Shown: positions 35,500 through 62,652, counted from the stretch's first letter. The stretch: 64,000 nt of DNA from an uncultured Christensenellaceae bacterium (GCA_964391805.1 CAYMNK010000006.1:466-64465), one strand, 5' to 3'. Numbers and translations: made by a program. The notes: a model not told the origin generated them from the sequence alone.

Positions 35500-35745
35500 T
35501 GGCGGACAATAACGTTAGCACTCGTCCTCCATCATATTGATTTCCGTCCCGTCATACTGAGCGTAGCGTAAGCGAAGTCGAAATTCGAACAAAGTGAGAA
35601 TCAAACGACGTAGGCGTTTGGTACTTTGCGGACGATAACGAGTAGTTGATTAAACGACATCCTTGTTAATAAGGAATAAGATTCTGACACTTCGTGTCAC
35701 CATTCGGGTTCGACTACGGTCTGTCGACGCTCAGAATGACAGGAT
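35500..35745. repeat. intergenic structured repeat family, locus 1 (one reverse and one forward unit)
   Basis: The reverse-strand core gtcatactgagcg (35551-35563) with gaagtcgaaattcgaac matches locus 6 in reverse complement. The forward unit 35679-35743 has hairpin TGACAC-ttc-GTGTCA, GGGTTCGACTAC, and core CGCTCAGAATGAC (35728-35740). The ttgcggacgataac module is at 35626-35639. Confidence 0.85.
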
Positions 35746-35858
35746 TGGGCGCCGACACTTGCCTTACCTTGGATTTATTTTTTGTAAAGTTTTGTTTTTT
35801 TGTCGCTTTATTCGAAAAAGTATGCTATACTCTTAGTTGAATTATTATAGAGGTGTAT

Positions 35859-36245
35859 ATGAAAATTTCATCAAAAGGAAGATACGCATTGAGAATAATG
35901 GTCGATCTCGCTCAAAAAGACGAATTGACTTCGATAAAAGAAATATCTACCGAGCAAGGTATTTCCCTTAAATATCTCGAACAAATCGTGGCAATGTTAC
36001 TAAAAGCCAACCTCGTCGAGGGTTTTAGAGGTCCTAACGGTGGCTATAAACTCACACGCAAACCCGAAAACATTCCCTTATCCGAGATTCTCGAGGCAAC
36101 GGAAGGGAAAATCTCTATAGTAGGTTGTCTGAGCGGTGGATGCGATAAGTCTAACGATTGTAAAACTCGTAATGTTTGGGAAAAACTAAATCAAAATATC
36201 AACGATTATCTAAAAAGCGTAATGTTAAGTGATTTAATCGATTAG
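35859..36245 (+). CDS. iscR: Rrf2-family transcriptional regulator, IscR-like (three C-terminal Cys ligands)
   Basis: MKISSKGRYALRIMVDLA.. is a typical Rrf2 wHTH N-terminus. GCLSGGCDKSNDC matches the IscR-type Fe-S ligand spacing. The gene lies directly upstream of nifS-nifU. The track start 35853 is a GTG; ATG 35859 follows AGAGGTG. Confidence 0.85.
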   Translation: MKISSKGRYALRIMVDLAQKDELTSIKEISTEQGISLKYLEQIVAMLLKANLVEGFRGPNGGYKLTRKPENIPLSEILEATEGKISIVGCLSGGCDKSNDCKTRNVWEKLNQNINDYLKSVMLSDLID

Positions 36246-36269
36246 TTTTGAGAATGTATGTCAATTCTA

Positions 36270-36299
36270 TTGACAATAATCGATATTGTAGGATATAAT
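36270..36299 (+). promoter_or_regulatory. near-consensus promoter in front of nifS (TTGACA-18-TATAAT)
   Basis: TTGACA 36270-36275, TATAAT 36294-36299. It is followed by two direct CTACTAAAA repeats (36305-36313 and 36335-36343) before the RBS AAGGAG. Confidence 0.55.
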
Positions 36300-36353
36300 A
36301 TTTCCTACTAAAATAGTATGAAATTAAACCTTTTCTACTAAAAGGAGTTATAA

Positions 36354-37547
36354 ATGGATAAAATAATTTATTTGGATAATGCAGGAACAACCAGAGTCGA
36401 CGAATCCGTTGTTAAGGCTATGCTACCATTTTTTACCGAAGAATACGGTAATGCTTCGAGCTTACACTATGTAGGTCAGTCCGCAAAAGAAAAACTCGAA
36501 CAGGCTCGTGCCGAAATTGCCCAATGCATATCTGCTAAACCTAATGAAATCTACTTCACTTCGGGCGGAAGCGAAAGCGATAACTGGGCACTTATGTCCG
36601 TCGCCAAATTCGGTGCTATGAAAGGTAAGAAGCATATTATATCGTCCGAAATCGAGCATCACGCTATATTGCATACACTGAAAAAACTCAAAAAGGACGG
36701 TTACGATATAACCTATTTACCGGTAGACGGTAACGGACTTATCTCTCTCGATGACCTCAAAAATGCAATTAGAACGGATACTTGTCTTGTAACCGTAATG
36801 TTTGCAAATAACGAAATCGGAACTATTGAACCAATCAAAGAAATCGGTGCTATTTGTAGAGAAAAAGGCGTAATATTCCACACCGACGCCGTTCAAGCGG
36901 TAGGTCACGTAAAAGTGGACGTCAACGAAATGAATATAGATATGCTAAGCATTTCCGCACACAAATTCCACGGACCTAAAGGGGTAGGTGCGCTCTACTG
37001 TAAAAAAGGCGTTCCCCTATTCCCATTAATCGAGGGCGGTACACAAGAAAGTAATAAGCGTGCAGGGACAGAGAATTTGGCATCCATAGTTGGGTTTTCC
37101 ACCGCTTTGAAACTCGCCGTGAACGAATTAGAGACCACCTCACGCCACGAGATCTTCTTAAGAGATAAGTTAATCGATGGGCTGTCCGAAATACCACATA
37201 GTATTCTAAACGGCGACAGAGAACAAAGATTACCCAATAACGTCAATATGTGTTTCGAGGGAATCGAAGGCGAAAGTCTACTGCTTTTACTTGCGGATAA
37301 GGGCATTTGTGCATCATCCGGTTCCGCTTGTACATCAGGTTCGCTCGATCCGTCACACGTTCTTTTGGCAATAGGCAGACCTCATGAGGTTGCTCACGGT
37401 TCATTAAGGCTGACACTTAGTAAGTACAACACCGAAAAAGAAATCGGCATCGTTATCCGAGAAGTTAAAGATGTCGTAGAATATTTAAGAAAGATATCCC
37501 CTGTATGGGACGAATTTCAAAAAGGAGTAAGAAATCATGTTATATAG
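36354..37547 (+). CDS. nifS: cysteine desulfurase (NifS/IscS type, class V aminotransferase)
   Basis: PLP-lysine motif SISAHKFHGPKGVG, active-site loop SSGSACTSGSLDPSHVL, 397 aa. Confidence 0.93.
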   Translation: MDKIIYLDNAGTTRVDESVVKAMLPFFTEEYGNASSLHYVGQSAKEKLEQARAEIAQCISAKPNEIYFTSGGSESDNWALMSVAKFGAMKGKKHIISSEIEHHAILHTLKKLKKDGYDITYLPVDGNGLISLDDLKNAIRTDTCLVTVMFANNEIGTIEPIKEIGAICREKGVIFHTDAVQAVGHVKVDVNEMNIDMLSISAHKFHGPKGVGALYCKKGVPLFPLIEGGTQESNKRAGTENLASIVGFSTALKLAVNELETTSRHEIFLRDKLIDGLSEIPHSILNGDREQRLPNNVNMCFEGIEGESLLLLLADKGICASSGSACTSGSLDPSHVLLAIGRPHEVAHGSLRLTLSKYNTEKEIGIVIREVKDVVEYLRKISPVWDEFQKGVRNHVI

Positions 37548-37983
37548 CGAAAAGGTAATGGATCATTTTAGAAATCCACGTAATGTAGGCGAAATACCCG
37601 ACGCAGACGGTATCGGTGAAGTAGGCAATGCAAAATGCGGAGACATAATGAGAATGTACATCAAGGTTGATAACGATATTATAACCGATGCTAAGTTTAT
37701 GACATTCGGTTGCGGAAGTGCTATAGCGACAAGCTCGATGGCTACCGAACTTATCAAGGGACAACCTATTTCTAAGGCACTCGAATTGACAAACGAAGCT
37801 GTCGTTGAGGCATTAGGCGGACTACCTGCATATAAAATTCACTGTTCGGTTTTAGCAGAAGAGGCTGTCAAACTTGCAGTCAAAGATTATTATCAAAAGA
37901 ATAATATTCCTTATGACGAATCGTTATTCAGTGAGGGTGATTGTCATTGTCACGATCACGACCACGGTTCGGATGAAGAATAA
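37537..37983 (+). CDS. nifU: Fe-S cluster assembly scaffold (NifU/IscU N-terminal-domain type)
   Basis: GNAKCGDIMRMYIKV, FMTFGCGSAIATSS and KIHCSVLAEEA are the three conserved Cys motifs. His/Asp-rich tail. Overlaps the nifS stop by 11 nt; RBS AAGGAG. Confidence 0.92.
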   Translation: MLYSEKVMDHFRNPRNVGEIPDADGIGEVGNAKCGDIMRMYIKVDNDIITDAKFMTFGCGSAIATSSMATELIKGQPISKALELTNEAVVEALGGLPAYKIHCSVLAEEAVKLAVKDYYQKNNIPYDESLFSEGDCHCHDHDHGSDEE

Positions 37984-38004
37984 TAGGATTAAACAATGCT
38001 AAAG

Positions 38005-38029
38005 AGCGACCGATTGTGTCGCTTTTTTT
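38005..38029 (+). terminator. rho-independent terminator after nifU
   Basis: AGCGAC-cgattgt-GTCGCT followed by TTTTTTT. Confidence 0.7.
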
Positions 38030-38046
38030 ATAAGGATTATAAACAA

Positions 38047-38161
38047 GGATTAGATACCGACACCGATGGTGTCGCGGCTACGCCGTTCGACTCCGCTTTC
38101 GCTCCGCTCAGTATGACATTTGATGGTGCAGTGTCATTCATAATTTGATGGCGGACGAAAG
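38047..38161 (+). repeat. intergenic structured repeat family, locus 2
   Basis: GGATTAGATAC, hairpin CGACACC-gat-GGTGTCG (38058-38074), GCTACGCCGTTCGACTCC, core CGCTCAGTATGAC (38105-38117), then ATTTGATGGTGCAGTG and GATGGCGGACGAAA modules. Confidence 0.9.
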
Positions 38162-38248
38162 TTTTTTCTTGATTTGATATTTTTTAAGGGTTAAGTGGTG
38201 AGAAAACGAATTGTTTTTGTGGAAGATTAAAGAAATTCTAAAAATTGC

Positions 38249-38278
38249 TTGACTACATGACCTTTTTTAGACCATAAT
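38249..38278 (+). promoter_or_regulatory. candidate promoter for ileS-leuS (TTGACT-18-CATAAT)
   Basis: Motifs at 38249-38254 and 38273-38278, leaving about 60 nt of leader to ATG 38342. No T-box elements present. Confidence 0.45.
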
Positions 38279-38341
38279 ATTATTTAAGATATTTAAATAT
38301 AATTTTGTATGCATATGCGTGCGAAATAATTAGGAGAAATT

Positions 38342-41300
38342 ATGAGAAAAGAAACATCCTCTGTCGATTTCATCGGTATCGAGCATTCTCTGCTCAGTAA
38401 ATGGAAGGATAGTAATCTATTTGCCAAAATCGTTGCTAAAAACGAAAACGGTCCGAGATTTCGCTTCCTCGACGGTCCGGTTACTGCTAATAACCGCTTG
38501 GGTATTCACCACATTTGGGGTAGAACTCTCAAGGATATTACAATTAAATACAACGCCATGCAAGGTAAGAGTTGCCAATACCAAAACGGTTTCGATGCTC
38601 AAGGTATGTGGGTTGAAGTAAATGTCGAAAAGGAATTGGGCTTAAACGGTAAACCTGAGATTCTTGGGTATGGATTGGATAAGTTCACCAATAAGTGCAT
38701 GGAGCGTGTTAAATATTTCGCTAACGCTATCACAGACCAAAGTATTCGTACAGGTCAATTCATGGACTGGGATAATAGCTATTTCACCAATACAGACGAA
38801 AATATCACAAGTATTTGGGCATTCCTCAAGATTTGCGACGAAAAAGGATATATCGTTCGCAAAAAACGCCCCATGGTTTGGTGTCCGAGATGCGGAACGA
38901 GTATTTCCGATCACGAAATGAGCGGTAGTTATAAGGATGTTATTCATACCGCTATCCTTTTCAAACTTCCCGTTAAAGGTAAAGATTTCAAAATGGTTGC
39001 TTGGACGACCACTCCTTGGACATTGACTGCAAACGTTGCACTTGCCGTTAACCCCGAATTGACCTACGTCAAAGTCAGACAACAGTCGGGCGAACTTTTG
39101 GTTTTGGGCAAAGATTCCATTCAAATGCTTAAAGGCGATGGAGAAATCGTTGAAGAATTCAAAGGTAGCGAACTTGTCGGTTTAGAGTACGAAACTTGTT
39201 TTCCCGAATTACCATTGCAACAATTCCCTCACAAGGTTCTTCCTTGGGAAGACGTCGTTCAAGGCGAAGGTAGCTGTATCGTCCATATTGCTCCCGGCTG
39301 CGGTGCAGAGGACTTCGAACTCGGTAAGAGATACGACCTACCTCAAATTTCACCTATCAATGACGGCGGTGTAATTCTCGATAACTTCGGAGAATTTTCC
39401 GGTATGCTTACCACCGAATATGGCGAGGTTCAAGGTATTAGACGCCCGCCGTTAGTCGATATGGTCATCGACAGATTGACTAAGGACGGTAAACTCGTAT
39501 ACGCTCACAAGTATAAGCATAGTTATCCTTACTGCTGGAGATGTAAGACCGACCTCGTATATAAGTTAATCGACACCTGGTATATCGCTATGGACGATTT
39601 ACGTCCCCAACTTGTTAAGGCATTGGACGAAGTTGAATTCAAACCCGAATTTGCAAGAAAGAGAATGCTCGACTGGCTCAACAATATGGGCGATTGGAAT
39701 ATCAGCCGTAGCCGTTTCTACGGTCTACCGCTCCCCTTCTACATCTGTCCTAAGTGCGGTAAACGCCATGTTATAGGTAGCATAGAAGAATTGAAAGAGC
39801 GTGCAATTAACCCCGAATTAGTGGATAAACTACCCAACATTCACCGCCCGTGGATAGACGATATCAAGATAACTTGCTCCGAGTGCGGTAGCGAAGTTTC
39901 ACGTATTCCCGAAGTAGGCGACTGCTGGTTGGATGCAGGTATCACGCCTTTCTCCACTAAAAAGTATTTTACCGATAAGGAATACTTTAATAATAATTAT
40001 CCGTCCGATTACGTTTGCGAAATGATCGAACAAATCAAGTTATGGTTCTATTCAATTCTCGTAATGGGCGTAACCATTACAGGTAAGGCTCCTTTCAAGA
40101 AGGTTTGCACATATCAATATGTTTTGGACGAAAACGGCGGAGAATTCCATAAGAGCGGTGGCAACACCCTCGACTGTAGCGAGGTTTGCGATAAGTTCGG
40201 TGCGGATCCTATCAGATACCTCTACGCTGCCGCTAATCCCACCATCGATATGAGATTCGGCGAAAGTTTGATAACCGAAGCTAAGCGTAAAATAATCGCT
40301 TTTTGGAATATGTACAGTTTCTTCAACACATATGCCGTAATCGATAATCCCGATCTCGAACATTATCATCCCGATATGGAATCACTTCCCCTTATCGACA
40401 AATGGTTGGTCAATAGAGTTAATAAATTTGTCAATATTGCAAACGCCTGCTACGACGATAACGAATATTATAAGGTTGTACAAGAATTCGAGGTTCTTAC
40501 CGATGATATTTGTAACTTCTATATTCGTACTAACCGTCCTCGTTTCTGGAAATCATCGGGCGACGATCAAATGAATGCATATTATTGTCTTTACTACGCT
40601 ATCAAGAATATGCTTCTCGTCATGGCTCCTATTATTCCATTCATTACCGATTACATTTGGAATAACACTGTTTGCGAATTAGAGCCTAACGAGCCAAAGA
40701 GTATACACCTTGCTTCATTCCCGACAGTTAAGGACGTTGACGAAAAACTCCTAACCATGGTAGATAAAGCAAGACAAATCATATATCTCGGTCTTAAAAT
40801 ACGTAATGAGAATAAAATCAAAATCAAGCAACCTTTAAAAACCGTATACGTCAAAGGCGATAAGGATTTCGTGGAAGCAAGCGGATTTATGAAAGACCAA
40901 ATTCTCAGTGAATTGAACGTAAAAGATATCGAGATTGTAGAAAGTGACGATAAGTTCAATACGAGTTCGTTAGTGCTTAACTTCCGTAAAGCAGGAGCCG
41001 TACTTCGTAAAGACGTAAACACCGTCAAAAATCTTCTTCTCGAAGCAACAGAAGAACAATCACAAAGATATGTAGGCGAATTCACTAACGGCGGAAACGT
41101 GAATGTTGACGGCTACGGCGAAGTTCCTGCGGACATTTTGGAACTAAAATTTGCACCACGTCCCGAATTTGCAGTGGTCGTTGAAGGCAATAATACCGTT
41201 GTTTTGGATATCGAACTCGATGCCGAACTCGAACAAGAAGGTATGCTTAGAGAACTTATCCGCAATATTCAAGTTGCGAGAAAGGAAGCCGATTTCCAAA

Positions 41301-41482: not shown

Positions 41483-41496
41483 TCAAGGACTTAATT

Positions 41497-43908: not shown

Positions 43909-43931
43909 AAACAATTTGATATTTATCTAAA

Positions 43932-43959
43932 AAGCCGAGACTCATCGCCTCGGCTTTTT
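43932..43959 (+). terminator. rho-independent terminator after leuS
   Basis: GCCGAG-actcatcgc-CTCGGC followed by TTTTT, flanked by an A-run (bidirectional shape). Confidence 0.7.
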
Positions 43960-44029
43960 AGATATTAAAATTGGTTTATGTTCACCATTAATTCTTCTTT
44001 TGTAATTTCATATTTTATGGAACAACAGA

Positions 44030-44222
44030 TTATGAGTTAGTACACACAACTCTTACTATGCCTGAAAAATAGTTATCATTTCCGGTTTCTTCGATGGTTA
44101 TACTATCCCACTGCTCTTGTGTTCCACTAAAATACACCTCAATTGTTTGCTTCTTATAACTAAGGTCATCGCCGAATAGAAATGCCGGTAAATGATTAAC
44201 AGAAGCCGGAATATAGCATGGT
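44030..44222 (-). pseudogene. C-terminal remnant of a leucine-rich-repeat (BspA-like) surface protein
   Basis: The track ORF 44030..44323 ends ..IPASVNHLPAFLFGDDLSYKKQTIEVYFSGTQEQWDSITIEETGNDNYFSGIVRVVCTNS. That is the typical last LRR plus the (Y/F)xGTxxQW...C tail of BspA-type LRR proteins. The N-terminal 34 codons of the ORF are encoded by the intergenic repeat element, so there is no credible start. Confidence 0.4.
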
Positions 44223-44665
44223 ATTTTAGATACCGATACCGATGGCAGTGCCCTTCGGGTTCGACTACGGTTTTCAACCTTGCTCAGAATGACATGATTG
44301 GTCGCTATCGCTTGCCCTGACATGGATTTTAGATACCGACACCTTTGGTGTCGCGGCTACGCCGTTCGACTACAGGGCGTTGCCCTTTCGCTCAGTATGA
44401 CATTTGATGGTGCGGTGCTATTCTGACGCTCATTATGACATATGCGTGTTCGTTATCGTCCGCAAGATAACAAATTTGCCTTTCATTACCGTCCAAGATA
44501 CTGCTCGATAAACCTCGCACTGCTACGCAGTTCGACTACAGACTTCGTCTTTCGCTCAGTATGACGGGACGGTAATCAGTATAACGGCGGACGAGATTTG
44601 CTTTGTATGACATTTGATGATATAGTGCTATTCTCTATTCAGTATGACGGCAGACGGAATTGCAC
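44222..44665 (+). repeat. intergenic structured repeat family, locus 3 (array of three units plus accessory modules)
   Basis: Cores at 44281 (TGCTCAGAATGAC), 44389 and 44553 (CGCTCAGTATGAC), plus a degenerate one at about 44639. Hairpin 1: CGACACC-ttt-GGTGTCG 44337-44353. Hairpin 2 variants: GGTT-ttc-AACC 44269-44279, AGGGC-gtt-GCCCT 44374-44386, AGAC-ttc-GTCT 44540-44550. GTTATCGTCCGCAAGATAAC module at 44451. Confidence 0.9.
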
Positions 44666-46211: not shown

Positions 46212-46535
46212 TTATTCTTTATATGATTTGCCAAAAAGTATTTGCATAAAATTTCGTCTACCATAAAGGACTCTTATGATGCAAACTTTTTCGCCATCGA
46301 CCTTGTAAAATGCGATATAGTTTCCGCATACAAGAAAACGATATGGAACTTCAAGACTGATAATAGAAGAAAGATGCGCACCACTTTCAGGAAAATCAGC
46401 AAGTTGACGCACACAACTCATAATCTTCTCAACAGTGTTTTTTGCCGATTGTTCGCTACAAAGTTCGTCGGTGATATACGCTTTAATTTCCTTCATATCC
46501 TCAAGAGCATCGGGCGTAAAAAGAATTTTAGCCAT
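46212..46535 (-). CDS. type II toxin, RelE/ParE family
   Basis: 107 aa with the ParE-like pattern ..FTPDALEDMKEIKAYI.. FPESG.. YRFLVCGNYIAFYKVDGEKVCIIRVLYGRRN. Overlaps the upstream antitoxin gene by 8 nt. Confidence 0.8.
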   Translation of the reverse strand: MAKILFTPDALEDMKEIKAYITDELCSEQSAKNTVEKIMSCVRQLADFPESGAHLSSIISLEVPYRFLVCGNYIAFYKVDGEKVCIIRVLYGRRNFMQILFGKSYKE

Positions 46536-46782
46536 TTAATACCCCCAAAATCGATTCCACATCCGTGATATCAATATATTCATTTTCTTTAACTGATATT
46601 TCACCCTTGGCAAGTTCACTCAATAATTTAAGCGTTGCTTGAGTTTTTTCGAATTCTTCCATGTCTACGATAGCGAATCTACCACGACCGTTCTTGGTGA
46701 GAAACACAGGCTCGCCAACGGCAATATCTCGCAAAACCTCATTGTAATTGCGCAAATCCGATACAGGCTTAATGTTTGGCAT
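46528..46782 (-). CDS. type II antitoxin, Phd/YefM family
   Basis: 84 aa. IKPVSDLRNYNEVLRDIAVGEPVFLTKNGRGRFAIVDMEEFE is a typical Phd/YefM N-terminal domain. RBS AAGGAGG. Confidence 0.8.
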   Translation of the reverse strand: MPNIKPVSDLRNYNEVLRDIAVGEPVFLTKNGRGRFAIVDMEEFEKTQATLKLLSELAKGEISVKENEYIDITDVESILGVLNG

Positions 46783-48125: not shown

Positions 48126-48300
48126 GGATTTTAGATACCGACGCGTTGCGTCGCCCTACGGGTTCGACTACGCTTACGCTCCGCTCAGTATGACATCGAT
48201 GGTACAGTACTGCTCATTCTTCCGCTCAGTATGATAGGACGGAAAACGATATGACGGCGGACGAATTCAGTGCTTAGTATGACTAATGGGCGGGCGATAC
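48126..48300 (+). repeat. intergenic structured repeat family, locus 4
   Basis: GGATTTTAGATAC, hairpin CGACGC-gtt-GCGTCG (48139-48153), GGGTTCGACTAC, cores at 48182 (CGCTCAGTATGAC) and 48223 (CGCTCAGTATGAT), GACGGCGGACGAA module at 48252. Confidence 0.9.
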
Positions 48301-50539: not shown

Positions 50540-51319
50540 TTATTTGTTATCTGACGATAAAACACGCTTGAGAAACTCTTTGGTTCTCTCTTCTTTTGGA
50601 TTTGTGAATATGACGTCAGGGGTGTCATCCTCAACAATTACGCCTTGGTCCATAAACAATACTCTTGAAGCAACATCCTTCGCAAATCCCATTTCGTGAG
50701 TTACTACAAGCATGGTCAAGCCCGAACCTGCAAGTTCTCTCATTATATCCAAAACTTCGCCGACCATCTCGGGATCCAATGCAGAAGTAGGTTCGTCGAA
50801 AAGAAGTACTTCGGGTTGCATAGCCAAAGCACGAGCAATGGCAACTCTTTGTTTTTGTCCGCCCGATAATTGATGCGGTTTAGCATTGACATATTCGCTC
50901 ATACCGACCATTTCCAAATATTTGAGCGCATTATCTTCCGCCTCTTGCTTGGATTTTTGAAGGACTTTGGTTTGTCCTATTATGCAGTTTTTGAGAACCG
51001 ACATATTGTTAAACAAATTGAAGGACTGGAATACCATACCGACTTTGGTGCGGAATAATGCACGATCATGGATTGTTTCGATATTCTCACCACGGTACGA
51101 TATAGAACCTGTAGTTATGTCTTCAAACTTGTTGATACAGCGTAAAAGGGTGGATTTACCGCTACCCGACGAGCCGATTATACAAATAACCTCTCCCGAA
51201 CTAACCTTGAAATCGATATCGTTCAAAACTTCGTGGTCACCGAAGACCTTGCCTACATGCTCGACCTCTATAACATATTCGCCGTTAGATATTACATCGT
51301 TGTTAATATTGTCGTTCAT
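50540..51319 (-). CDS. polar amino-acid ABC transporter ATP-binding protein (GlnQ-like)
   Basis: [45 protein letters not shown]. Confidence 0.93.
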
Positions 51320-51321
51320 AA

Positions 51322-52104
51322 TTACTCCTTATTGACCTCGTCAATGATGGCTATGGACTCGGCATCCATATTGCCCGAACCTTTGATAACATAATTCTTA
51401 CTGCCTGCAAGTTTACGCTCTACCAAAAGCAAGATTCTACTGATACCGAAGGTCAAAATAAAGTAGATAATTGCAGCAAATAAGTACGTACCGAAATACA
51501 AATAATTATTTGTAGCTATATCCTTAGTTACAAAGAATAACTCGGCAAATCCGATAACATTCAATACGGATGTATCCTTGATGTTGATAATGAATTCGTT
51601 AGCAACGGACGGTAGAATATTGCGCATAACCTGAGGTATAACGACATATACCATGGCTTGAAAATGGTTCATTCCGATAGCCTCGGCTCCTTCGAATTGT
51701 CCTTTATCTATAGAGATGATACCGCCCCTTACTATCTCCGCCATATACGCACCGGTATTGATGCTGACGATAAATAGTGCGGACACGGTTACGTCTAACG
51801 TATCGCCACCCGAAAGAATAGCATAACCCCAATAGATAACCATAGCTTGAACCATCATCGGAGTACCTCTGAATACTTCGACGTATGCACTGATAATAAA
51901 ATCTATTATCTTCTTAAATACCTTGCCAACCTTATTGTGAGGATTAACGGGATATGTACGAATAACGCCTACTATTAAACCAATCAAAAGACCCATGATA
52001 GTACCGACTATCGATACGAGTAACGTTAGTCCGATACCCTTGAGGACCTGTTTAATATAAAAATCGCTCGAGAAAATCCCTTTTACTACTTCAATAAATT
52101 GCAT
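51322..52104 (-). CDS. polar amino-acid ABC transporter permease (His/Glu/Gln/Arg/opine family)
   Basis: 260 aa, about 5-6 TM, EAA-like loop [28 protein letters not shown]. Confidence 0.9.
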
Positions 52105-52108
52105 TGTA

Positions 52109-52954
52109 CTATCCTACGTATTTTGTACTTAATTCGGTTGCTTCTTCCATTAATTGTAATCTTTCTTCGGCAGAAATACCTGCTAAAACTTGGTTTATAG
52201 CATCCTTATAACTGCTTCCCTTCTTAAGACCGATAGCAATAGCTGTATCTGCATCAGTTGCGCTGAAGCCGGTAGTATTGTTCTTGAGAGGGATATAGGT
52301 GAAATCGCTGTTTGCAGCACAGTCAGCCTTTGCACCCGGTTCTTCTGCAATATAACCGTCGATAGCCTTACTCTTAAGTGCGTTGATCATAAGGGGGAAA
52401 GTGTCCATAGATGTTTGTACAGAGATTCCGTAATTGGGACCTTGTTCCTTAAGTGCATCCTCATGGAATGTACCTTGTTGAGCAACCAACTTAGCGCCGT
52501 TAAAATCGCTAAGGCTATTAGCAGAAGCAAAATTTCCATCCTTACGAACTACGATAACGAGGTTACCATTATAATAAACGTCCGAAAAATCGATGGCTTG
52601 CATTCTCTCAGCTGTAGGAGACATACCGGCAATGATGAAGTCCAAAGCACCAGATGTAACTGCGGGAATCAAAGCATTAAATTCATATTTATATACTTTC
52701 AATTCCTTACCGAGAGCTTCGGCAACCTTTTTAGCGATCATTATATCATAGCCACCTGCATAGCCGTCGTTATTTGCAATTTGAACTGCACCATCAGCAT
52801 CGGTGGATTGCGTCCAGTTATAAGGAGCATATCCGCATTCCAAACCTACGGTGATATAATCTTTTTCGCCCTCGTTATTATTACATGCGGTAAAGCAACA
52901 TACAACGGATAATACGAGAGTCAAAATTAATACGATAGAAACTAATTTTTTCAT
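52109..52954 (-). CDS. amino-acid ABC transporter substrate-binding lipoprotein (probably lysine, given the riboswitch)
   Basis: Start ATG 52954 (MKKLVSIVLILTLVLSVVCCFTAC, lipobox) after AGAGGA. Family-3 SBP features. The longer track ORF (to 53062) runs into the riboswitch terminator. Confidence 0.85.
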   Translation of the reverse strand: MKKLVSIVLILTLVLSVVCCFTACNNNEGEKDYITVGLECGYAPYNWTQSTDADGAVQIANNDGYAGGYDIMIAKKVAEALGKELKVYKYEFNALIPAVTSGALDFIIAGMSPTAERMQAIDFSDVYYNGNLVIVVRKDGNFASANSLSDFNGAKLVAQQGTFHEDALKEQGPNYGISVQTSMDTFPLMINALKSKAIDGYIAEEPGAKADCAANSDFTYIPLKNNTTGFSATDADTAIAIGLKKGSSYKDAINQVLAGISAEERLQLMEEATELSTKYVG

Positions 52955-52994
52955 TTTTAAATCCTCTGTAATTAATATTTCTAATCGATATGGC

Positions 52995-53031
52995 AATAAA
53001 AAACCGTGATTCGAGCGTATCAAATCACGGT
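52995..53031 (-). terminator. intrinsic terminator = expression platform of the lysine riboswitch
   Basis: Minus strand: ACCGTGATT-11 nt-AATCACGGT followed by TTTTTATT, about 40 nt upstream of the SBP start codon. Confidence 0.75.
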
Positions 53032-53060
53032 CAAAAAACCATAACTTAAGATAGCACTCC

Positions 53061-53216
53061 ACATTTTTAAATGCGACAGTCTAAGGCATATTCTACCTTA
53101 ACCCAGCAAGGCGAGCTTTGACATACTCGACAAGCTTCGGCGACCTCTCCTTTCGGCTAACCGCAATCGTCAAAACGGATAGCGTACTGATATCGGACGC
53201 GCCTCTATCATTAGAT
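53061..53216 (-). promoter_or_regulatory. lysine riboswitch (L-box) aptamer
   Basis: The minus strand reads GAUAGAGGCGCGUCCGAUAUCAGUA ... AGCCGAAAGGAGAGGUCGCCGAAGC ... CUUGCUGGGUUAAGG ... CCUUAGACUGUCGCA. This matches the conserved L-box blocks of B. subtilis lysC (AGAGGUGC, GAGUA, GGGGAGCGUCGCCGAAG, GCUGG, GGCUGUCA) in order and spacing. Confidence 0.85.
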
Positions 53217-53310: not shown

Positions 53311-53325
53311 CATGTGTTTTATAGA

Positions 53326-53397
53326 ATAAGATACCGACGCTTTGCGTCGCTGCTACGCAGTTCGACTTCGGTCTATCGACCTACGCTCAGTATGACA
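53326..53397 (+). repeat. intergenic structured repeat family, locus 5
   Basis: AAGATAC, hairpin CGACGC-ttt-GCGTCG (53335-53349), GCTACGCAGTTCGACTTC, GGTC-tatc-GACC (53370-53381), core CGCTCAGTATGAC (53384-53396). Confidence 0.9.
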
Positions 53398-53480
53398 TAA
53401 ATATTTATCCGCAATTTTGCAGAGCATAACATCATTTACATCAGCGTTTCCATCCAAGAATTGATGGGACTTTGATGTAA

Positions 53481-53515
53481 CGAAAAAGCCTTGACGGTTC
53501 CGCCAAGGCTTTTTC
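53481..53515 (-). terminator. terminator after the ferredoxin gene (bidirectional shape)
   Basis: AGCCTTG-10 nt-CAAGGCT flanked by an A-run and a T-run. Confidence 0.7.
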
Positions 53516-53547
53516 ATTAATCGGTTAGACCGAAAAATTAATCAAAA

Positions 53548-53718: not shown

Positions 53719-53856
53719 AACATTACACTCCTTTAATAGTATACGATTATTATATCATACGGATTAGAAATATACAAATACTTTTAACTATTTTATCCAA
53801 ATGAATTTATATTTTTTGAAGAAGCGTTGCTTCCTTTTATACAAAGTGTCGTTTGG

Positions 53857-55122: not shown

Positions 55123-55222
55123 GTTGTACCTCCTCAAATGCGCTCAATGAGTAATAACAGTGTGTGTTACTGTAAGGGTCTGAAGTTTCTTCGTGCATTT
55201 TTTTAAATCCTCTCAATTATTT

Positions 55223-56824: not shown

Positions 56825-57237
56825 TAAAGCGATTTGAGAATTTCACCGACAAGTTTCATATCGACTGTACCGGAGTAGTTCGCTTTGAAGTGACGCATTA
56901 CCGTGGGAACCGATTTATCCTCTAAAGATAGAATGATTTCCTTAATTTGCTCTGCGGTGAGTTGCTTAGGAAGGTACGCTTCGACTGCGGAAAGTTGGTT
57001 GGTTAATGATTCAACTTCTTCCGTTCTGTTTGCCTTAATGAATCCTTCGCGCTCTTCTTTTAGTTCTTTCATCGCTTTACGAATGGCGTTATTGACATCG
57101 GCCTCGGTCAACTCACCGTTACCGCTCTTCTCTTGAACCATAAGCAATGAAATAACAACGTTAAGACCTTTTACGGTGTCGTTATCGTGAGCTTTCATTG
57201 CAACGATTTTTGCCTTTTTTAAATCTTGTAGAGTCAT
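56824..57237 (-). CDS. GatB/YqeY domain protein
   Basis: ATG 57237 (MTLQDLKKAKIVAMKAHD) after AAGGAG. Typical YqeY sequence through ..VDMKLVGEILKSL. The track ORF carries a spurious 47-codon N-terminal extension. Confidence 0.85.
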   Translation of the reverse strand: MTLQDLKKAKIVAMKAHDNDTVKGLNVVISLLMVQEKSGNGELTEADVNNAIRKAMKELKEEREGFIKANRTEEVESLTNQLSAVEAYLPKQLTAEQIKEIILSLEDKSVPTVMRHFKANYSGTVDMKLVGEILKSL

Positions 57238-57274
57238 AATTATCTCCTTGCCCGAATGTGTTTCGAGCATTGTT

Positions 57275-59701
57275 TTATTTGTTTTTCTTTTTGAATCCGT
57301 CCACGAATTTCTTAAATCCGCCCTTGACTCCATTAAACATATCGACCAAGCCTGCAATCGAATACATCGAAAGCACACCGCCCGAAAAACCGCACAATCC
57401 TCTTAGTGGCATACACTCCACAGAACGCACGATCATTTCGGCGTTTAGCGATTCGCTTGCCATAAACTTGCTTGCGATTTTGGCAATTCTCAATATGAAT
57501 TTGCCGAGTCCTGTGAAGGACGCCTCGCCTATGGTCGTATTCATAGTAAATTCACCTTTTTTATACGATTCATTAGACGGAATGGGTTTACCGAGCAATT
57601 TTTCAAACTGTTCGTCAGGTATCTCGTCAACTTTTGCAATATCCCTATATGAATCAAGTCCGCTCGTATCGGGTATAGGCAAGTCATCACCTACAACCGA
57701 AATCGGTACAGTTAGACGAATATCTCTCGAAGACGAACCTACCAGCAATTCATAGTCACCCGATAGGATACTCCAATCGTTTTCAGCGGTATTGTAGTAA
57801 GCAAATGACCTATCGTCGAGCGTCAATTCTACAGTCACGGTTTCGCCCTTAGGAACGAATACCTTATGGAATGCTTTGAGTTCTTTATCCGCTTTGAATA
57901 TCGGTGAATTACGATGGCGAACATATAGTTGTGCGACTTCCTCACCGTCATATTCGCCAATGTTTTTTATATCAACGGTAACAGTTAATGTATCACCCTT
58001 ATTGAAGTCCGATCTTGACTTTACATTCGAATATTCGAATTCGGTATACGATAAGCCGTGCCCGAATGGATATGCGGGGGTTTTATCGGCGCTGTCGAAA
58101 TATCTATATCCTACATAGATCGATTCGCGATATTCCACCGTTCGAGGTCCCTGTGGAAAATACTTATTCGATATACAATCGTCAAGGGATTCGGGAAATG
58201 TTTCTGCCAACTTACCGGACGGATTGACAACTCCGTACAACAATTCGTAAGTCGCTTCGCCAACTGCCTCACCAAGCAAATATGTGTTAAGTATCGCTTT
58301 TGCTTTATCACGTGTGGGAATAACCACAGGCGATCCGCATTGTAATACGATTATGAGGTCTCCTTCTAATCCGCTTAACTCTTCAAGCAATCTTACTTGT
58401 CCATCCGGAATATTTATATGAGTTCTATCGAATCCTTCGCTTTCATAAACATCGGTAAGACCGACCACTGCCACAATTTTTTGTTTATTACGAGCACGAT
58501 TGACGGCCTCGTTAAGTAACTTCTTATTATAACCGTCACCGGTGAGTAAGTAACCTTCGGCATACTCGACATCTCGTCCGTTTTGTTTGAAAGCATCTAT
58601 AATATTTACCGTATTTCTCGATGCTATTCTACTACTTCCCGAACCTTGATAACGGCAATTCTCCGCAAGTTTACCTACAATTATTATGTCGTCGGTATCT
58701 TTAAGTGGCAATGCTTGTCCTTCGTTTTTAAGCAATACCGCCGAATGGGTACCCATTTGTTTACATAATATATGATGCTTATCGTAATCGGCTTTATAGT
58801 CGGGAATACGCTTATCGGCACATTCGTTGACATAGTTGAGCACGTCGAGTACCGCTTTATCGAGATCGGCTTCAGTGAGTTTGCCCTCTAAGACGGCATT
58901 TAATACCAATTTATCATGTACTCCTTTAGTACCGGGCATTTGTAAATCAAGACCTGCTTTGATACCTTCTACTCGGTCGCTGACAGCTCCCCAATCGGAA
59001 ACGACAAGTCCTCTATATCCCCATTCGGTACGCAATATGTCTGTGAGAAATCTCTTACTCTCGCTAACATACACGCCATCGATACGGTTGTATGATGCCA
59101 TGATTTGTTGAGGATTAGCCGTTTTAACGACCTTTTCAAAAGCGGAAAGATATATTTCCCTAAGCGCTCTTTCATCGATAACGGAGTCGATAGACATTCG
59201 GTTATACTCTTGATTATTACAAGCAAAGTGCTTAAGAGAAGTACCGATACCGCAAGATTGGACGCCCTCGACAAAGGATGTTGCCATAGTGCCTGAAAGG
59301 AAGGGATCTTCGGAATAATACTCAAAATTTCTACCGCATAAAGGGGACCTTTTGATGTTGATACCGGGGCCTAATATTGTAGAAATATTTTGGTCGTGTG
59401 CTTCCTCCGCAATGGCTACGCCGACCTGTTTTATAAGATCGGTATCCCACGAGCTTGCCATTGTTACGGCAGGCGGGAAGCATGTTGCCGGTTCACTGCC
59501 TTTCATTATATTGAGTCCGCCCTTGCCCGAATCGGCACCGAATTCCTTACGCAATCCGTGCGGACCGTCTGTCATAGTTATAGCGGGGATGCCCAGTCTT
59601 TCGATAGGCTTCGTAGTCCAAAAATACAAACCGCTGATAAGGCTCGTTTTTTCTTCAAGCGTTAATTCGGATAAAACTTTCTCGGTATCGAACATGGGCA
59701 T
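57275..59701 (-). CDS. glycoside hydrolase family 3 beta-glucosidase (808 aa, with extra C-terminal amphipathic extension)
   Basis: GH3 motifs GPHGLR, KHFACNNQE, RGLVVSDWGAV. Fn3-like domain (GHGLSYTEFEY). Confidence 0.9.
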   Translation of the reverse strand: MPMFDTEKVLSELTLEEKTSLISGLYFWTTKPIERLGIPAITMTDGPHGLRKEFGADSGKGGLNIMKGSEPATCFPPAVTMASSWDTDLIKQVGVAIAEEAHDQNISTILGPGINIKRSPLCGRNFEYYSEDPFLSGTMATSFVEGVQSCGIGTSLKHFACNNQEYNRMSIDSVIDERALREIYLSAFEKVVKTANPQQIMASYNRIDGVYVSESKRFLTDILRTEWGYRGLVVSDWGAVSDRVEGIKAGLDLQMPGTKGVHDKLVLNAVLEGKLTEADLDKAVLDVLNYVNECADKRIPDYKADYDKHHILCKQMGTHSAVLLKNEGQALPLKDTDDIIIVGKLAENCRYQGSGSSRIASRNTVNIIDAFKQNGRDVEYAEGYLLTGDGYNKKLLNEAVNRARNKQKIVAVVGLTDVYESEGFDRTHINIPDGQVRLLEELSGLEGDLIIVLQCGSPVVIPTRDKAKAILNTYLLGEAVGEATYELLYGVVNPSGKLAETFPESLDDCISNKYFPQGPRTVEYRESIYVGYRYFDSADKTPAYPFGHGLSYTEFEYSNVKSRSDFNKGDTLTVTVDIKNIGEYDGEEVAQLYVRHRNSPIFKADKELKAFHKVFVPKGETVTVELTLDDRSFAYYNTAENDWSILSGDYELLVGSSSRDIRLTVPISVVGDDLPIPDTSGLDSYRDIAKVDEIPDEQFEKLLGKPIPSNESYKKGEFTMNTTIGEASFTGLGKFILRIAKIASKFMASESLNAEMIVRSVECMPLRGLCGFSGGVLSMYSIAGLVDMFNGVKGGFKKFVDGFKKKNK

Positions 59702-59718
59702 TTCCTCGATTTAACTAA

Positions 59719-61095
59719 TTAGAATTCCAATTTCTTTTGAACAAAATCGACAACCTCGTCTACCGATAGTCTGATTTGTTCCATAGAATCTCTGTCACGC
59801 AATGTGACTGTACCGTTTTCTAACGTATCGAAGTCGATGGTTACGCAGAAAGGCGTACCCGATTGATCTTGTCTACGATAACGCTTACCGATAGAACCTG
59901 CTTCGTCATACACACACATAAACTTCTTGGATAATTGCTTATAGACTTCCTTTGCCTTTTCGGAAAGATTCTTTTGCAAGGGAAGAACTGCGACCTTATA
60001 AGGTGCGATGAACGGATGGAAGTGCATAACTACTCTTGTATCACCGCCTTCGAGTGTTTCCTCGTCGTATGCGTCGCATAGACAAGCAAGCAACAATCTG
60101 TCGCATCCGATTGAATATTCTACAACGCTGGGGATGTATTTTTCGTTGGTTACGGGATCCAAGTAAAGCATGCTCTTACCCGAATACTCTTGGTGACGGC
60201 TGAGGTCGTAGTCGGTACGATTGTGAATGCCGTTTAATTCGCTCCAACCGATAGGGAATAGATACTCGATATCACAAGCAGCCTTTGCATAGTGAGCGAG
60301 TTTGTCATGATCGTGGAAACGCAATTCGTCGGGATTGAAGCCTAATGAAATGACGAAATCCCAAGCTTTTTGCTTATATTCATGATAGAAACGCTCCGAC
60401 TCTTCTGCCTTACAGAATAATTGATGCTCCATTTGTTCGAATTCGATCGTTCTAAAAATGAAGTTACCCGGAGTGATCTCGTTACGGAACGATTTACCGA
60501 TTTGAGCGATCCCGAAGGGAACTTTTGCACGAGATGTGCGTTGAACGTTCAAAAAGTTGACGTATTCACCCTGTGCCGTTTCGGGACGTAGGTAAATGAT
60601 ATCTTGACCGCCCTCGGTAACACCGCGTGAAGTCGAGAACATCATATTGAATTGACGAATATTTGTCCAATTGTGATTACCGCAACGAGGACAATTGATG
60701 TGATGTTCCTCGATATACTTTTCCATTTCTTCATTAGTCATGAGATCGGGATTAACATCACCTTTTGCATGTTCCGAAATAAGGGTATCCGCTCTAAAAC
60801 GGCTCTTACATGACTTACAATCCATTTTAGGATCGGAGAAACTTGCGGTATGACCGCTTGCATCCCAAACTCTGGGGTTCATGAGGATAGCGGCATCTAC
60901 GCCGAATGAATTATCCGATTCTTGGACGAATTTCTTCCACCAAGCTTTTTTGATATTGTTTTTAAGTTCAACACCTAAAGGACCGTAGTCCCATGTGTTA
61001 GCGAGACCGCCGTAGATATCACTACCGGGGTAAACGAAACCGACGGATTTACAATGAGTAACTAATTTATCCATAGTTAAGCATTTTCTTGACAT
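59719..61095 (-). CDS. glyQS: glycine--tRNA ligase (dimeric class II type)
   Basis: ..GFVYPGSDIYGGLANTWDYGPLG.., class II motifs (FRNEITPGNFIFRTIEFEQME; GCDRLLLA). 458 aa. RBS AAGGAG 6 nt upstream. Confidence 0.95.
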   Translation of the reverse strand: MSRKCLTMDKLVTHCKSVGFVYPGSDIYGGLANTWDYGPLGVELKNNIKKAWWKKFVQESDNSFGVDAAILMNPRVWDASGHTASFSDPKMDCKSCKSRFRADTLISEHAKGDVNPDLMTNEEMEKYIEEHHINCPRCGNHNWTNIRQFNMMFSTSRGVTEGGQDIIYLRPETAQGEYVNFLNVQRTSRAKVPFGIAQIGKSFRNEITPGNFIFRTIEFEQMEHQLFCKAEESERFYHEYKQKAWDFVISLGFNPDELRFHDHDKLAHYAKAACDIEYLFPIGWSELNGIHNRTDYDLSRHQEYSGKSMLYLDPVTNEKYIPSVVEYSIGCDRLLLACLCDAYDEETLEGGDTRVVMHFHPFIAPYKVAVLPLQKNLSEKAKEVYKQLSKKFMCVYDEAGSIGKRYRRQDQSGTPFCVTIDFDTLENGTVTLRDRDSMEQIRLSVDEVVDFVQKKLEF

Positions 61096-61173
61096 AAAAA
61101 ACTCCTTTTAATATCGTAATTCTAATGGCACTCTATCCTATTTGGACAAAATACCCATTTTGATATTATATTA

Positions 61174-61202
61174 ATAATAATTTATGTAGTATAAAAAGTC
61201 AA
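61174..61202 (-). promoter_or_regulatory. possible proximal glyQS promoter (TTGACT-17-TATTAT)
   Basis: -35 at 61202-61197, -10 at 61179-61174. It competes with the stronger distal promoter at 61485-61513. Confidence 0.35.
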
Positions 61203-61224
61203 GTATTTAGTATTTTCTTACATA

Positions 61225-61302
61225 AAAAAATCGTTCTTCAAAAATAATAGTGAATTCCCAAAGTAAATTCTACAACGGAATTTACTTTGGGAATTCACTA
61301 TT
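61225..61302 (-). terminator. very strong hairpin (perfect 25-bp stem, 7-nt loop) followed by a U-rich tract on the minus strand
   Basis: AATAGTGAATTCCCAAAGTAAATTC (61246-61270) / tacaacg / GAATTTACTTTGGGAATTCACTATT (61278-61302). On the minus strand it is followed by ATTTTTGAAGAACGATTTTTTT. Confidence 0.6.
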
Positions 61303-61388
61303 TGGATACATTTCAAATTACATAGCAAGTTAAAATAAATGTAAAACTGAATGCCTTTTTTAAGGTTGTCGTGTTGACGACATAATTA

Positions 61389-61412
61389 ATGAGCCGATGG
61401 GCTCATTTTTTT
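61389..61412 (+). terminator. orphan plus-strand terminator-like hairpin
   Basis: ATGAGCC-gatg-GGCTCAT followed by TTTTTTT. There is no plus-strand gene upstream of it. Confidence 0.4.
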
Positions 61413-61484
61413 ATACCCTAAAACGTGGTTAACAGCATTACTTTTTATTTTTCTTTCTATATAAAAGAAATATTCCACTCATCT

Positions 61485-61513
61485 ATTATAGCACAGCAAA
61501 CCCTACGATTCAA
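61485..61513 (-). promoter_or_regulatory. strong extended -10 promoter facing glyQS (TTGAAT-17-TGcTATAAT)
   Basis: Derived base by base: -35 at 61513-61508, 17-nt spacer cgtagggtttgctgtgc, -10 at 61490-61485 with TG at -15/-14. Confidence 0.55.
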
Positions 61514-61739
61514 TAGTCAATTGTGATTTTTTTGACACATTTTTGTAATATTTATCAAGTTTTATTATATTTCGACATTAAATACTACCTACTATTAATC
61601 TCTTGTTCGGACTTAGCTTCCAATGTTATGCGTCACACTTTACACTTAACTAAAAACGTTATCAGTTTAAGTGAGATAAGTAAAATTAACAATTCCCATG
61701 ATTTTTGCCGAATTTTGCTTATAAATAACGGAGTCGATA

Positions 61740-61768
61740 TTGACACGCCTTTATTTTAGGAGTAAAAT
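61740..61768 (+). promoter_or_regulatory. promoter for the small-protein/GNAT pair (TTGACA-17-TAAAAT)
   Basis: TTGACA 61740-61745, TAAAAT 61763-61768, about 30 nt upstream of ATG 61800 (RBS AAGGAGG). Confidence 0.55.
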
Positions 61769-61799
61769 ATATTAAAGGATTTTGTAAGGAGGCTACAAA

Positions 61800-62012
61800 A
61801 TGAAAGAGAGAAAAAAGGAAAAACGCTTTGTAAGAGTGTTTAATGAATATTCTACATGCGATACTCGCACAGATATTTTCATTGATAAAGAAACAGGTAT
61901 TAATTATTTGCTAATGCGTAATGGCTATTCCTCTACAATAACGCCACTTCTCGACACCGAGGGGAAGCCCATAGTAAGCGATATTGACAGTATAGGAGTT
62001 AAAAATGAATAA
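61800..62012 (+). CDS. small conserved hypothetical protein (70 aa; resembles DUF6440-type small proteins, from memory)
   Basis: Strong RBS. ..FIDKETGINYLLMRNGYSSTITPLLDTEGKPIV.. resembles a small-protein family common in Clostridia. Overlaps the GNAT start by 8 nt. Confidence 0.6.
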   Translation: MKERKKEKRFVRVFNEYSTCDTRTDIFIDKETGINYLLMRNGYSSTITPLLDTEGKPIVSDIDSIGVKNE

Positions 62013-62475
62013 TTCGGTCCAAATAATTAGATTAAGCGACAATCCGGAATATAAAGAACGGATGGCGCAATGGTTTCACCAAAAATGGGGAATCCCCCTA
62101 TCCGCATATTTGGAAAGCATGGAAGAAGGATTATCCAATGATAACGCATACCCCGAATGGTATGTTGCCTTATCAAATGACCGTATTGTCGGTGGATTGG
62201 GCGTCATCGAAAACGATTTTCACGAACGCAAGGATTTAAAGCCGAATGTGTGCGCAGTATATGTAGAAGAAGATATGAGATGTAATGGCATTGCCGGGCG
62301 TCTTCTCAACCTTGTTTGTGACGACATGAGCGAACGCGGAATAGACACCCTTTATCTTTTGACAGACCATACCGGTTTTTATGAGCGCTACGGATGGAAT
62401 TTCTTATGTCCTGTATACGGCGACGGCGAAGAAGAACCGTCACGTATGTACGTTCATAAACAATTATTAGATTAA
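62005..62475 (+). CDS. GNAT-family N-acetyltransferase
   Basis: 156 aa. MAQWFHQKWGIPLSAYLESM.. N-terminus, acetyl-CoA motif region YVEEDMRCNGIAGRLLNLV, C-terminal FYERYGW. Confidence 0.85.
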   Translation: MNNSVQIIRLSDNPEYKERMAQWFHQKWGIPLSAYLESMEEGLSNDNAYPEWYVALSNDRIVGGLGVIENDFHERKDLKPNVCAVYVEEDMRCNGIAGRLLNLVCDDMSERGIDTLYLLTDHTGFYERYGWNFLCPVYGDGEEEPSRMYVHKQLLD

Positions 62476-62506
62476 TATCAAAAAAAAAGGCTAAAGGCCA
62501 ATATTG

Positions 62507-62537
62507 AAGGACAGTGGAAATGCATTGTCCTTTTTGT
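62507..62537 (+). terminator. terminator after the GNAT gene
   Basis: AGGACA-12 nt-TGTCCT followed by TTTTTGTTT. Confidence 0.5.
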
Positions 62538-62652
62538 TTGATGGTATAGGTTATCGTCCGCAAGATACCAAATTGTTGCACAATTTGATTCTCACTTCGT
62601 TCGAATTTCGACTTCGCTCAGTATGACGGCGGACGAAAACCGGTATGACATA
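62537..62652 (+). repeat. intergenic structured repeat family, locus 6
   Basis: TTTGATGGT, GTTATCGTCCGCAAGATACC (62550), GATTCTCACTTCGTTCGAATTTCGACTT, core CGCTCAGTATGAC (62615-62627), GGCGGACGAAAAC. Near-identical to the reverse complement of 35521-35640. Confidence 0.9.

Follow-up and report, generated by a model that had tools for sequence, protein, structure and literature searches.

Several kinds of small folded repeat are known from bacterial genomes. The repetitive extragenic palindromic (REP) sequences of Proteobacteria, like the bacterial interspersed mosaic elements (BIMEs) and REPINs, are mobilised by Y1 transposases of the RAYT family, and in Escherichia coli REPs act in transcripts. 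Bacterial MITEs (miniature inverted-repeat transposable elements), such as Correia/NEMIS, RUP, BOX and bcr1 of the Bacillus cereus group, are small, non-coding and multi-copy; they are predicted to fold and lie between genes, sometimes within operons. Folded DNA of another kind is found in attC sites, of which attC-aadA7 carries a GNA-type loop on its folding strand. The REP surveys consulted here list neither GTAG/CGTC repeats nor class 2 (RAYT) genes for Clostridia and Firmicutes (PMC3733652, PMC6006769). Here we describe a family of branched, multi-hairpin repeat units in a 64,000-nt stretch of DNA (the window) from an uncultured Christensenellaceae bacterium (GCA_964391805.1, CAYMNK010000006.1:466-64465). 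The units are structured and multi-copy, recur in many genomes and viral contigs, nest within one another and turn over between strains. They may be REP/BIME- or MITE-like repeats that work as folded single-stranded DNA.

The original prediction had recognised the family by a short core at ten intergenic coordinates, nearly all in one absolute orientation. All ten carry CGCTCAG(W)ATGAC with at most one mismatch, and a further variant lies at 44427. These 11 matches compare with 0.05 expected by chance, a count that none of 100 shuffles reaches, and ten of them lie on the plus strand, in agreement with the uniform orientation that had been reported. A covariance model, R1, was built from 23 units and searched against the whole window with filters off. 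It finds nine full units within six intergenic regions between 35.5 and 62.7 kb, and it also matches weakly to 3' parts of units at 44404-44441, 48199-48237 and 44593-44613. Between 1 and 35 kb, where giant coding regions take up nearly all of the DNA, no match is significant (best E 0.07). Open reading frame (ORF) calls around the units bear out their intergenic placement. One called ORF, 44030-44323(-), overlaps the unit at 44227-44295, has its start codon inside that unit and gives no Pfam hit; it is probably not a gene as called. The 3' part of this ORF resembles the C-terminal remnant of an LRR/BspA-type surface protein.

Unit architecture and covariation

A unit is about 63-70 nt long and reads, from 5' to 3', (A)GAT-N-C, hairpin P2, mini-hairpin P3, (G)TTCGACT, an optional hairpin P4 and CGCTCAG-N'-ATGAC. 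It thus comprises up to three hairpins and a closing helix, with some 25 conserved bases left unpaired. The closing helix has four base pairs, ATNC/GN'AT, in which the variable base N is complementary to N'. Although the 5' end of the unit had been located before, its pairing with G-N'-AT inside the core was absent from that description. A complementary GATNC lies upstream of 184 of 234 cores, and the relation holds separately for three N' bases: 89 of 114 cores with A, 40 of 47 with G and 55 of 68 with T.

Two further elements of the predicted architecture need revision. The block GCTACGC(C/A)G, which had been taken to be invariant and single-stranded, is actually the covarying mini-hairpin P3, with variants CGGC-TAC-GCCG, CTGC-TAC-GCAG and CCC-TAC-GGG. 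The second hairpin (P4) is present in some units but absent at 38051 and 48132, where CGCT repeats stand instead. The accessory modules that had been noted beside the units do exist, but two of them, GTTATCGTCCGCAAGATA.C and GACGGCGGACGAA, pair with each other as arms of one outer stem, TCGTCCGC/GCGGACGA. Another pair of arms is formed by ATTACCGTCC and GGGACGGTAAT, and outer stems can stack. In shell-bearing copies the outer stem and the closing helix together form imperfect inverted termini of 11-15 bp, with at least seven of ten pairs in 80 units. Such termini are absent from seven of the nine window units and from Christensenellaceae copies.

Compensatory changes support four helices. In an alignment of 23 units made with MAFFT only, 96.5% of cells are paired, compared with 80.9% after shuffling, and 13 of 18 pairs have changed on both sides (slid controls 31-47%). 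When 146 distinct units are aligned with the model, the corresponding values are 95.4% and 69.6%, and 17 of 18 pairs have changed on both sides (615 cells; slid controls 34-45%). The larger alignment is fitted to the model and therefore biased towards it, whereas the MAFFT alignment is not. Covariation is present in both, so that the proposal of an intergenic family whose hairpins are kept through compensatory changes stands. The composites that carry an outer stem fold well as RNA, with z -3.7 for 44450-44597 and z -3.1 for 62540-62642.

Spread, nesting and turnover

Scanning one genome per GTDB species with the pattern GTTCGACT-N(1-25)-GCTCAGWATGAC returned at least 98 loci, with about 200 chance matches estimated in 596 Gb. 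We assign loci to the family because they have complementary GATNC, hairpins and multiple copies per locus, none of which is part of the scan pattern. R1 makes 184 matches at E < 0.001 in 98 genome loci, among the matches listed. The listed loci are mostly from gut and rumen metagenome-assembled genomes (MAGs) of Oscillospiraceae, Christensenellaceae, Ruminococcus, Lachnospiraceae, Eubacteriales and Clostridia; single matches in Nocardia, Methanoregulaceae and Anaerolineales are probably due to chance. Density can be high. In the Oscillospiraceae MAG CAZSIF, one locus has units in nearly all of its intergenic regions, and locus L018 has 11 cores in 8 kb, with nearly every gene gap filled. By extrapolation, a genome could hold hundreds of copies.

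The best named relatives of the isoleucyl-tRNA synthetase (IleRS) encoded in the window are Christensenellales MAGs at about 63% identity. One subfamily crosses family boundaries: the window unit at 44495 resembles copies in Oscillospiraceae CAZSIF and in Christensenellaceae loci L071 and L087. Relatives at 75-81% IleRS identity have other unit types near ileS and leuS, including short units without P2 and P3 such as GATCC-TTCGACT-TCGCTCAGGATGAC. Short units whose GATNC is complementary are also present in single loci that carry the labels Bacteroidota, Balneolaceae, Planctomycetota, Acidobacteriaceae and Abditibacteriales. In a Flavobacteriales MAG (L025 5716-5762), two short 3' cores (CGCTCAGTTTGAC) face each other in a near-perfect palindrome, so that the short form makes a doublet like a REPIN. 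Two short units in L103 (1030-1100 and 9500-9580) are preceded by a conserved block of roughly 60 nt (GCCACCAAAGGACGACAAAATGGCGTCCGACGTGGGAATGGGGG...), which is seen in L104 as well; these two loci encode identical IleRS and differ in DNA sequence upstream of about 9.2 kb.

A scan of viral contigs gave at least 120 loci, of which at least 80 have one or more supported units. Among the viral matches listed, 136 of 179 have a complementary GATNC upstream, and the three non-complementary letters together account for 32. The viral units adjoin terminase, portal and tail genes.

Units also occur inside and beside other units. In GC-rich MAGs the place of P3 or P4 in one unit is taken by a second, inverted unit that has an outer stem of its own, and this nested architecture recurs in L084 (3140-3320), L086, L033, L057 and L005. 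Christensenellaceae loci have a unit, then about 130 nt, then a second 3' core, and the window itself contains head-to-tail arrays with degenerate members and stacked shells.

Unit content changes between close relatives. Upstream of ileS, locus L100, whose IleRS is 98% identical to that of the window, has the window's sequence from GGCGGACGAAAG on, and a different unit end abuts GGCGGACGAAAG there. Downstream of leuS, L100 diverges from the window right after the terminator, and in both genomes the C-terminal remnant of a surface protein abuts a unit. The remnant in L100 (5850-6013) differs from that of the window and abuts a reverse unit at the same place. Because different remnants (44030-44323 in the window and 5850-6013 in L100) meet units at one place, the units mark a rearrangement breakpoint. 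The phage contigs L164 and L182 are about 92% identical, and one of them has an additional composite of 168 nt with the direct repeat CTCCGCTCAGAATGACATGCG at its boundaries. Contigs assembled from short reads, of the same strain or of sister strains, terminate inside units, and no split genes were found around units.

Copies in the window and their neighbours

The leftmost copies lie in 35364-35852, the only divergent intergenic region among the unit sites. A reverse composite (35519..35643, minus strand) contains a 'type 2' unit with its core at 35549-35627 (R1 33.3 bits, E 2e-7). Its 5' arm TATCGTCCGC is at 35628-35637, and its stacked 3' arms are GACGGGACGG at 35544-35553 and GGAGGACGA at 35522-35530. 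This composite is 97% complementary to 62584-62618. Next to it, on the plus strand like all the other copies below, is a unit of the GATTC/GAATGAC type (35678..35742, 60.1 bits) with P2 TGACAC/GTGTCA followed by P3 and P4. The iscU terminator at about 38004-38030 is followed downstream by a GATAC-type unit (38051..38119, 73.1 bits); this unit has P2 CGACACC/GGTGTCG and P3 CGGC-TAC-GCCG and lacks P4. A degenerate short module, ATTTGATGGTGC..., follows at 38118..38160 with a solo 3' arm, GGCGGACGA (38150-38158), whose 5' partner is missing.

The array downstream of leuS begins with a unit that has the variant core TGCTCAGAATGAC (44227..44295, 51.1 bits). The next unit (44330..44403, 79.7 bits) has all three hairpins, including P4 AGGGC/GCCCT, and its DNA fold gives z -3.1 on the plus strand and -3.5 on the minus strand. 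A degenerate short unit ending in CGCTCATTATGAC (44404..44441, 10.9 bits, core with one mismatch) leads to a two-shell composite (44450..44597) that encloses a unit at 44495-44567 (71.6 bits for the inner unit). Its outer stem pairs TCGTCCGC at 44456-44463 with GGCGGACGA at 44586-94, and its inner stem pairs ATTACCGTCC at 44485-94 with GGGACGGTAAT at 44566-76. The predicted RNA fold of this composite is -46 kcal/mol, and its DNA fold has z -3.1. More degenerate 3' pieces, TTTGTATGAC, the module ATTTGATGATATAGTGCTATTCTCTATTCAGTATGAC and GGCAGACGG, follow at 44598..44657, with a weak R1 match at 44593-44613. At 44397-44424 and 44607-44634(+), the unit 3' end ATGACA and the following module together form a promoter-like site pointing downstream, with a -35 and a TG-extended -10 (9/12). 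Such sites at a unit end plus module are no commoner than in shuffles.

A second array, 48132-48297, begins directly after a stop codon. Its full unit (48132..48196, 68 bits) has P2 CGACGC/GCGTCG and P3 CCC-TAC-GGG and is without P4. It is followed at 48199..48297 by a degenerate short unit (48199-48237) and by stacked solo 3' arms, AGGACGG, GATATGAC-GGCGGACGA (48256-64) and TTAGTATGAC-TAATGGGCGGGCGA, none of which has a 5' partner. The top-scoring unit (53328..53398, 84.4 bits) stands between the terminator of the upstream minus-strand gene at about 53487-53517 and a promoter-like site at 53251-53223 that belongs to a lysine-riboswitch operon. The last copy (62540..62642, 31.5 bits) is a 'type 2' unit at 62562-62629 within a complete outer stem formed by TATCGTCCGC (62552-61) and GGCGGACGA (62628-36). 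It starts directly after a terminator-like hairpin, and its z as DNA is -3.95. As read from the sequence, the units at 38051, from 44227 onward, at 53328 and at 62540 all lie past an intrinsic terminator and ahead of the next promoter-like site.

The genes around the units are an Rrf2 regulator, iscS, iscU, ileS, leuS, an amidase, a ParE/Phd pair, GH3 enzymes, an ATP-binding cassette (ABC) amino-acid transporter behind a lysine riboswitch, a class II aminoacyl-tRNA synthetase and a GNAT acetyltransferase. The lysine riboswitch (53044-53215(-), 106.5 bits) precedes an SBP_bac_3/permease/ATPase amino-acid ABC operon at 50540-53062(-). The ParE toxin and Phd-YefM antitoxin genes are at 46212-46782(-). 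Upstream of the class II synthetase gene (59719-61095(-)) is a perfect 25-bp inverted repeat with a 7-nt spacer (61246-61302), which bears no relation to the family described here. Giant repetitive surface-protein genes fill 1-33075(-): the first runs off the left end and extends to about 17.2 kb with many diverged internal repeats, and the others include a Big_2 protein at 17717-20929 and a 3033-aa ORF at 23974-33075.

Folded DNA, RNA and comparison with known systems

This branched-hairpin element is absent from Rfam and from the searchable literature outside subscription journals. Rfam 15 has no match at any unit, either at the gathering threshold or at E values up to 10. The true Rfam matches all lie elsewhere and are the lysine riboswitch, tRNA, a tetrahydrofolate (THF) riboswitch at L018 6211-6320 and a Flavo-1 RNA at L025 2689-2781. 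Neither of the last two is related to the repeats, and Flavo-1 was set aside as a separate RNA. The junction was also compared by eye with the hammerhead, twister, hatchet, pistol, k-turn, tRNA-like and T-loop motifs, whose order or essential bases do not fit. Nothing relevant to the core strings, translated peptides or keywords was found in the literature, the units had no BLAST match among INPHARED phages or PLSDB plasmids, and a protein search with the translated repeat returned only seven small hypothetical ORFs and was uninformative. Resemblances to the inverted repeat of Tn3, to nic sites of the IncP type and to the nonamers of circoviruses were discarded, as the covarying position is among the shared bases.

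The hairpin loops give a hint of which strand folds. Among the P2, P3 and P4 triloops, 163 of 202 are TNC on the strand as written, 145 of these are closed by C-G, and none is GNA; the tetraloops are mostly TNNC. On the complementary strand these loops read C(GNA)G and C(GNNA)G, which are the sequences of DNA mini-hairpins of extraordinary stability (PMC13037366). When folded with DNA parameters, six of eight window units are more stable as the complement, by 0.6-3.5 kcal/mol. In typical RNA families G:U pairs are enriched over A:C mismatches, but in the inner helices here G:T is not enriched (26 versus 21 A:C). The loops therefore point to the complement, with which the wobble counts do not agree.

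The explanation that we prefer, and to which we give about an even chance, is that these units are modular non-coding interspersed repeats of REP/BIME- or MITE-like character that work as folded single-stranded DNA. The evidence favours these two of the candidates first put forward over an sRNA or a protein-binding insulator. The element would be selfish or partly domesticated, multiplying within genomes and moving between lineages, phages included. Structure, copy number, spread, nesting and strain turnover are all observed, whereas a single-stranded DNA intermediate, an enzyme and cut sites are inferred. The enzyme would act in trans, recognising the conserved unpaired motifs on the folded single strand, and cutting and joining could occur where the closing helix brings both ends together. 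New copies might land within other copies, which would give nesting at hairpin positions, beside a 3' core, which would give tandem arrays, or in the dead space between a terminator and the next promoter. Copies would then persist where they do least harm, and some would be taken into transcripts. That they make up a new class of single-stranded DNA site or mobile element, with a branched fold, an enzyme family so far unlinked to repeats, a range across phyla and phages, and insertion into itself, is unlikely. A conserved junction acting as a catalytic or ligand-binding nucleic acid is less likely.

Several observations weigh against the proposed mobile DNA repeat. No transposase or HUH gene lies near units in about 2 Mb of loci, and no pair of unit ends in this sequence encloses an ORF within 0.35-5 kb, as a longer parent element would require. 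The window has no Y1/HUH gene, and the statement that it contains no transposase agrees with the scanned ORFs, among which there is neither a transposase nor an integrase (two giant repetitive ORFs lay outside that scan). The ORFs clustered near or between units are only phage terminase, portal and tail genes and housekeeping genes. Probing 99 sources with Y1 sequences (IS608 TnpA and E. coli RAYT) found only an IS200 copy in L034. This frameshifted IS200-like tnpA (L034 250-716) is about 120 nt from a reverse unit and is the sole Y1 transposase seen near any unit, probably by coincidence. Unit listings, inspected without a formal scan, have no flanking direct repeat that would mark a target-site duplication. 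No clean pair of empty and filled sites was found; look-ups with window proteins gave only short contigs ending in repeats, and the difference between phages L164 and L182 fits insertion beside the 3' core and unequal recombination between direct repeats equally well. REPs are species-specific (PMC6006769), and a core that is near-identical across orders and recognisable across phyla is unusual for them. Units without the outer stem are no more stable than shuffles (z +0.3 to -1.9); because they are thermodynamically ordinary, the case for structure rests on covariation and not on stability. Some units are inside operons and would necessarily be transcribed, as at L088 5881-5965 between ABC transporter and PNP genes and in phage L164 between structural genes, where one unit precedes a start codon by 45 nt. 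The wobble counts of the outer stem (26 versus 8) favour the strand as written, in conflict with the loops. Finally, unit orientation relative to the dominant gene strand is 18:9 across loci (p = 0.12, not significant) and 15:19 in viral loci.

Some of these points would suit a structured RNA module, such as an mRNA stabiliser, a processing site, an insulating hairpin or a multi-copy small RNA, in which the junction binds a protein or forms a tertiary fold. Its junction nucleotides would be conserved while helices vary and hairpins are optional, as is the case here, and the units inside operons, the RNA folds of the shell-bearing copies and the one-sided wobble of the outer stem are all compatible with it. 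However, unit orientation is independent of the flanking genes, with 26 convergent, 19 tandem-anti, 18 tandem-co and 15 divergent arrangements across loci, and most window units are past intrinsic terminators. The orientation data and this placement therefore weigh against a strand-specific mRNA element. Inverted nesting would also put antisense inside a sense copy, the inner helices lack the expected G:U excess, on the wobble-rich strand the loops are of other kinds than the stable ones usual in RNA, and no Rfam family matches. We consider an RNA module possible but, on balance, improbable.

A host-serving DNA signal seems a poorer candidate still. Such a signal might direct priming or replication restart on the lagging-strand template, or bind a nucleoid or topoisomerase-type protein as BIMEs do gyrase and IHF. 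Mini-hairpins of the C(GNA)G type are part of known single-strand initiation signals, the phage G4 origin and RSF1010 ssiA (PMC13037366). Judged by gene orientation and GC skew, the strand with the GNA loops is the lagging-strand template in eight of nine window units, and the regular density of about one locus per 5 kb and the placement between transcription units also speak for such a signal. The orientation bias fails across loci, however, and content differs between strains related at 98%; nesting, truncated pieces and phage copies fit a selfish element better. Strain turnover, fragments and phage copies therefore speak against a signal that the host needs. The precedent of REPs shows that both the RNA module and the host signal would be compatible with a mobile DNA repeat. 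Decay from a gene, insertion sequence or prophage, or an assembly artefact, is very improbable: the window has many truncated or degenerate pieces and a surface-protein gene remnant abuts one array, but there is no coding potential, four helices have undergone compensatory changes, the same architecture occurs in independent assemblies from many samples and lineages, and the chance expectation for the core is 0.05.

If the mobile DNA repeat is the correct explanation, then uncultured gut and rumen Clostridia hold a repeat system whose density equals that of REPs in E. coli, one that breaks short-read assemblies, marks rearrangement sites and travels with phages. A conserved protein partner probably exists, because the core is conserved across orders, and the loop signature offers a direct handle on the idea of single-stranded DNA. 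A covariance model of the unit would clean MAG annotation and remove spurious small ORFs.

Among known systems, the single-strand initiation signals of the phage G4 origin and RSF1010 ssiA are clusters of small hairpins with C(GNA)G loops (PMC13037366). The units here likewise have clustered small hairpins, whose loops on one strand are of the C(GNA)G mini-hairpin type, but those signals are single-copy origin elements, whereas this element has many copies, and the likeness is one of loops and not of compared sequences. attC sites are similar in their recognition by shape, paired conserved end boxes, variable and sometimes branched middle, GNA-type loop on the folding strand and uniform local orientation. 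Their boxes are RYYYAAC and GTTRRRY, in contrast to AGATNC and GN'ATGAC here, and the repeats come without cassettes or integrase; in place of cassettes, the intervening genes are housekeeping genes (iscSU, ileS, leuS and others), some with their own promoter-like sites. The repeats resemble MITEs in being small, non-coding, multi-copy, modular as in BOX and predicted to fold, in their sites between genes and sometimes within operons, and in the inverted termini of the shell-bearing copies. Unlike MITEs, they have no visible target-site duplication, many copies are without inverted termini, no parent insertion sequence with matching ends was found in about 2 Mb of loci, and they nest in themselves at defined internal positions.

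REPs differ in being a single palindrome of 20-40 nt, compared with the branched multi-hairpin unit described here, and in having a RAYT, none of which was found within the 64-kb window and the fetched loci. The invariant GT[AG]G (or CGTC) foot tag of REPs is missing here as well. GTAG appears on the complement only where the variable base after TTCGACT is A, and CGTC is present in the window outer-stem arm TCGTCCGC and absent from the CCGCCCG-type arms of other genomes. In other respects the correspondence with REPs, BIMEs and REPINs is broad: both groups are high-copy, extragenic and palindromic, form mosaics and inverted doublets in both orientations and vary by compensatory change. Both lie between transcription units, probably act as folded single-stranded DNA and can end up in transcripts.

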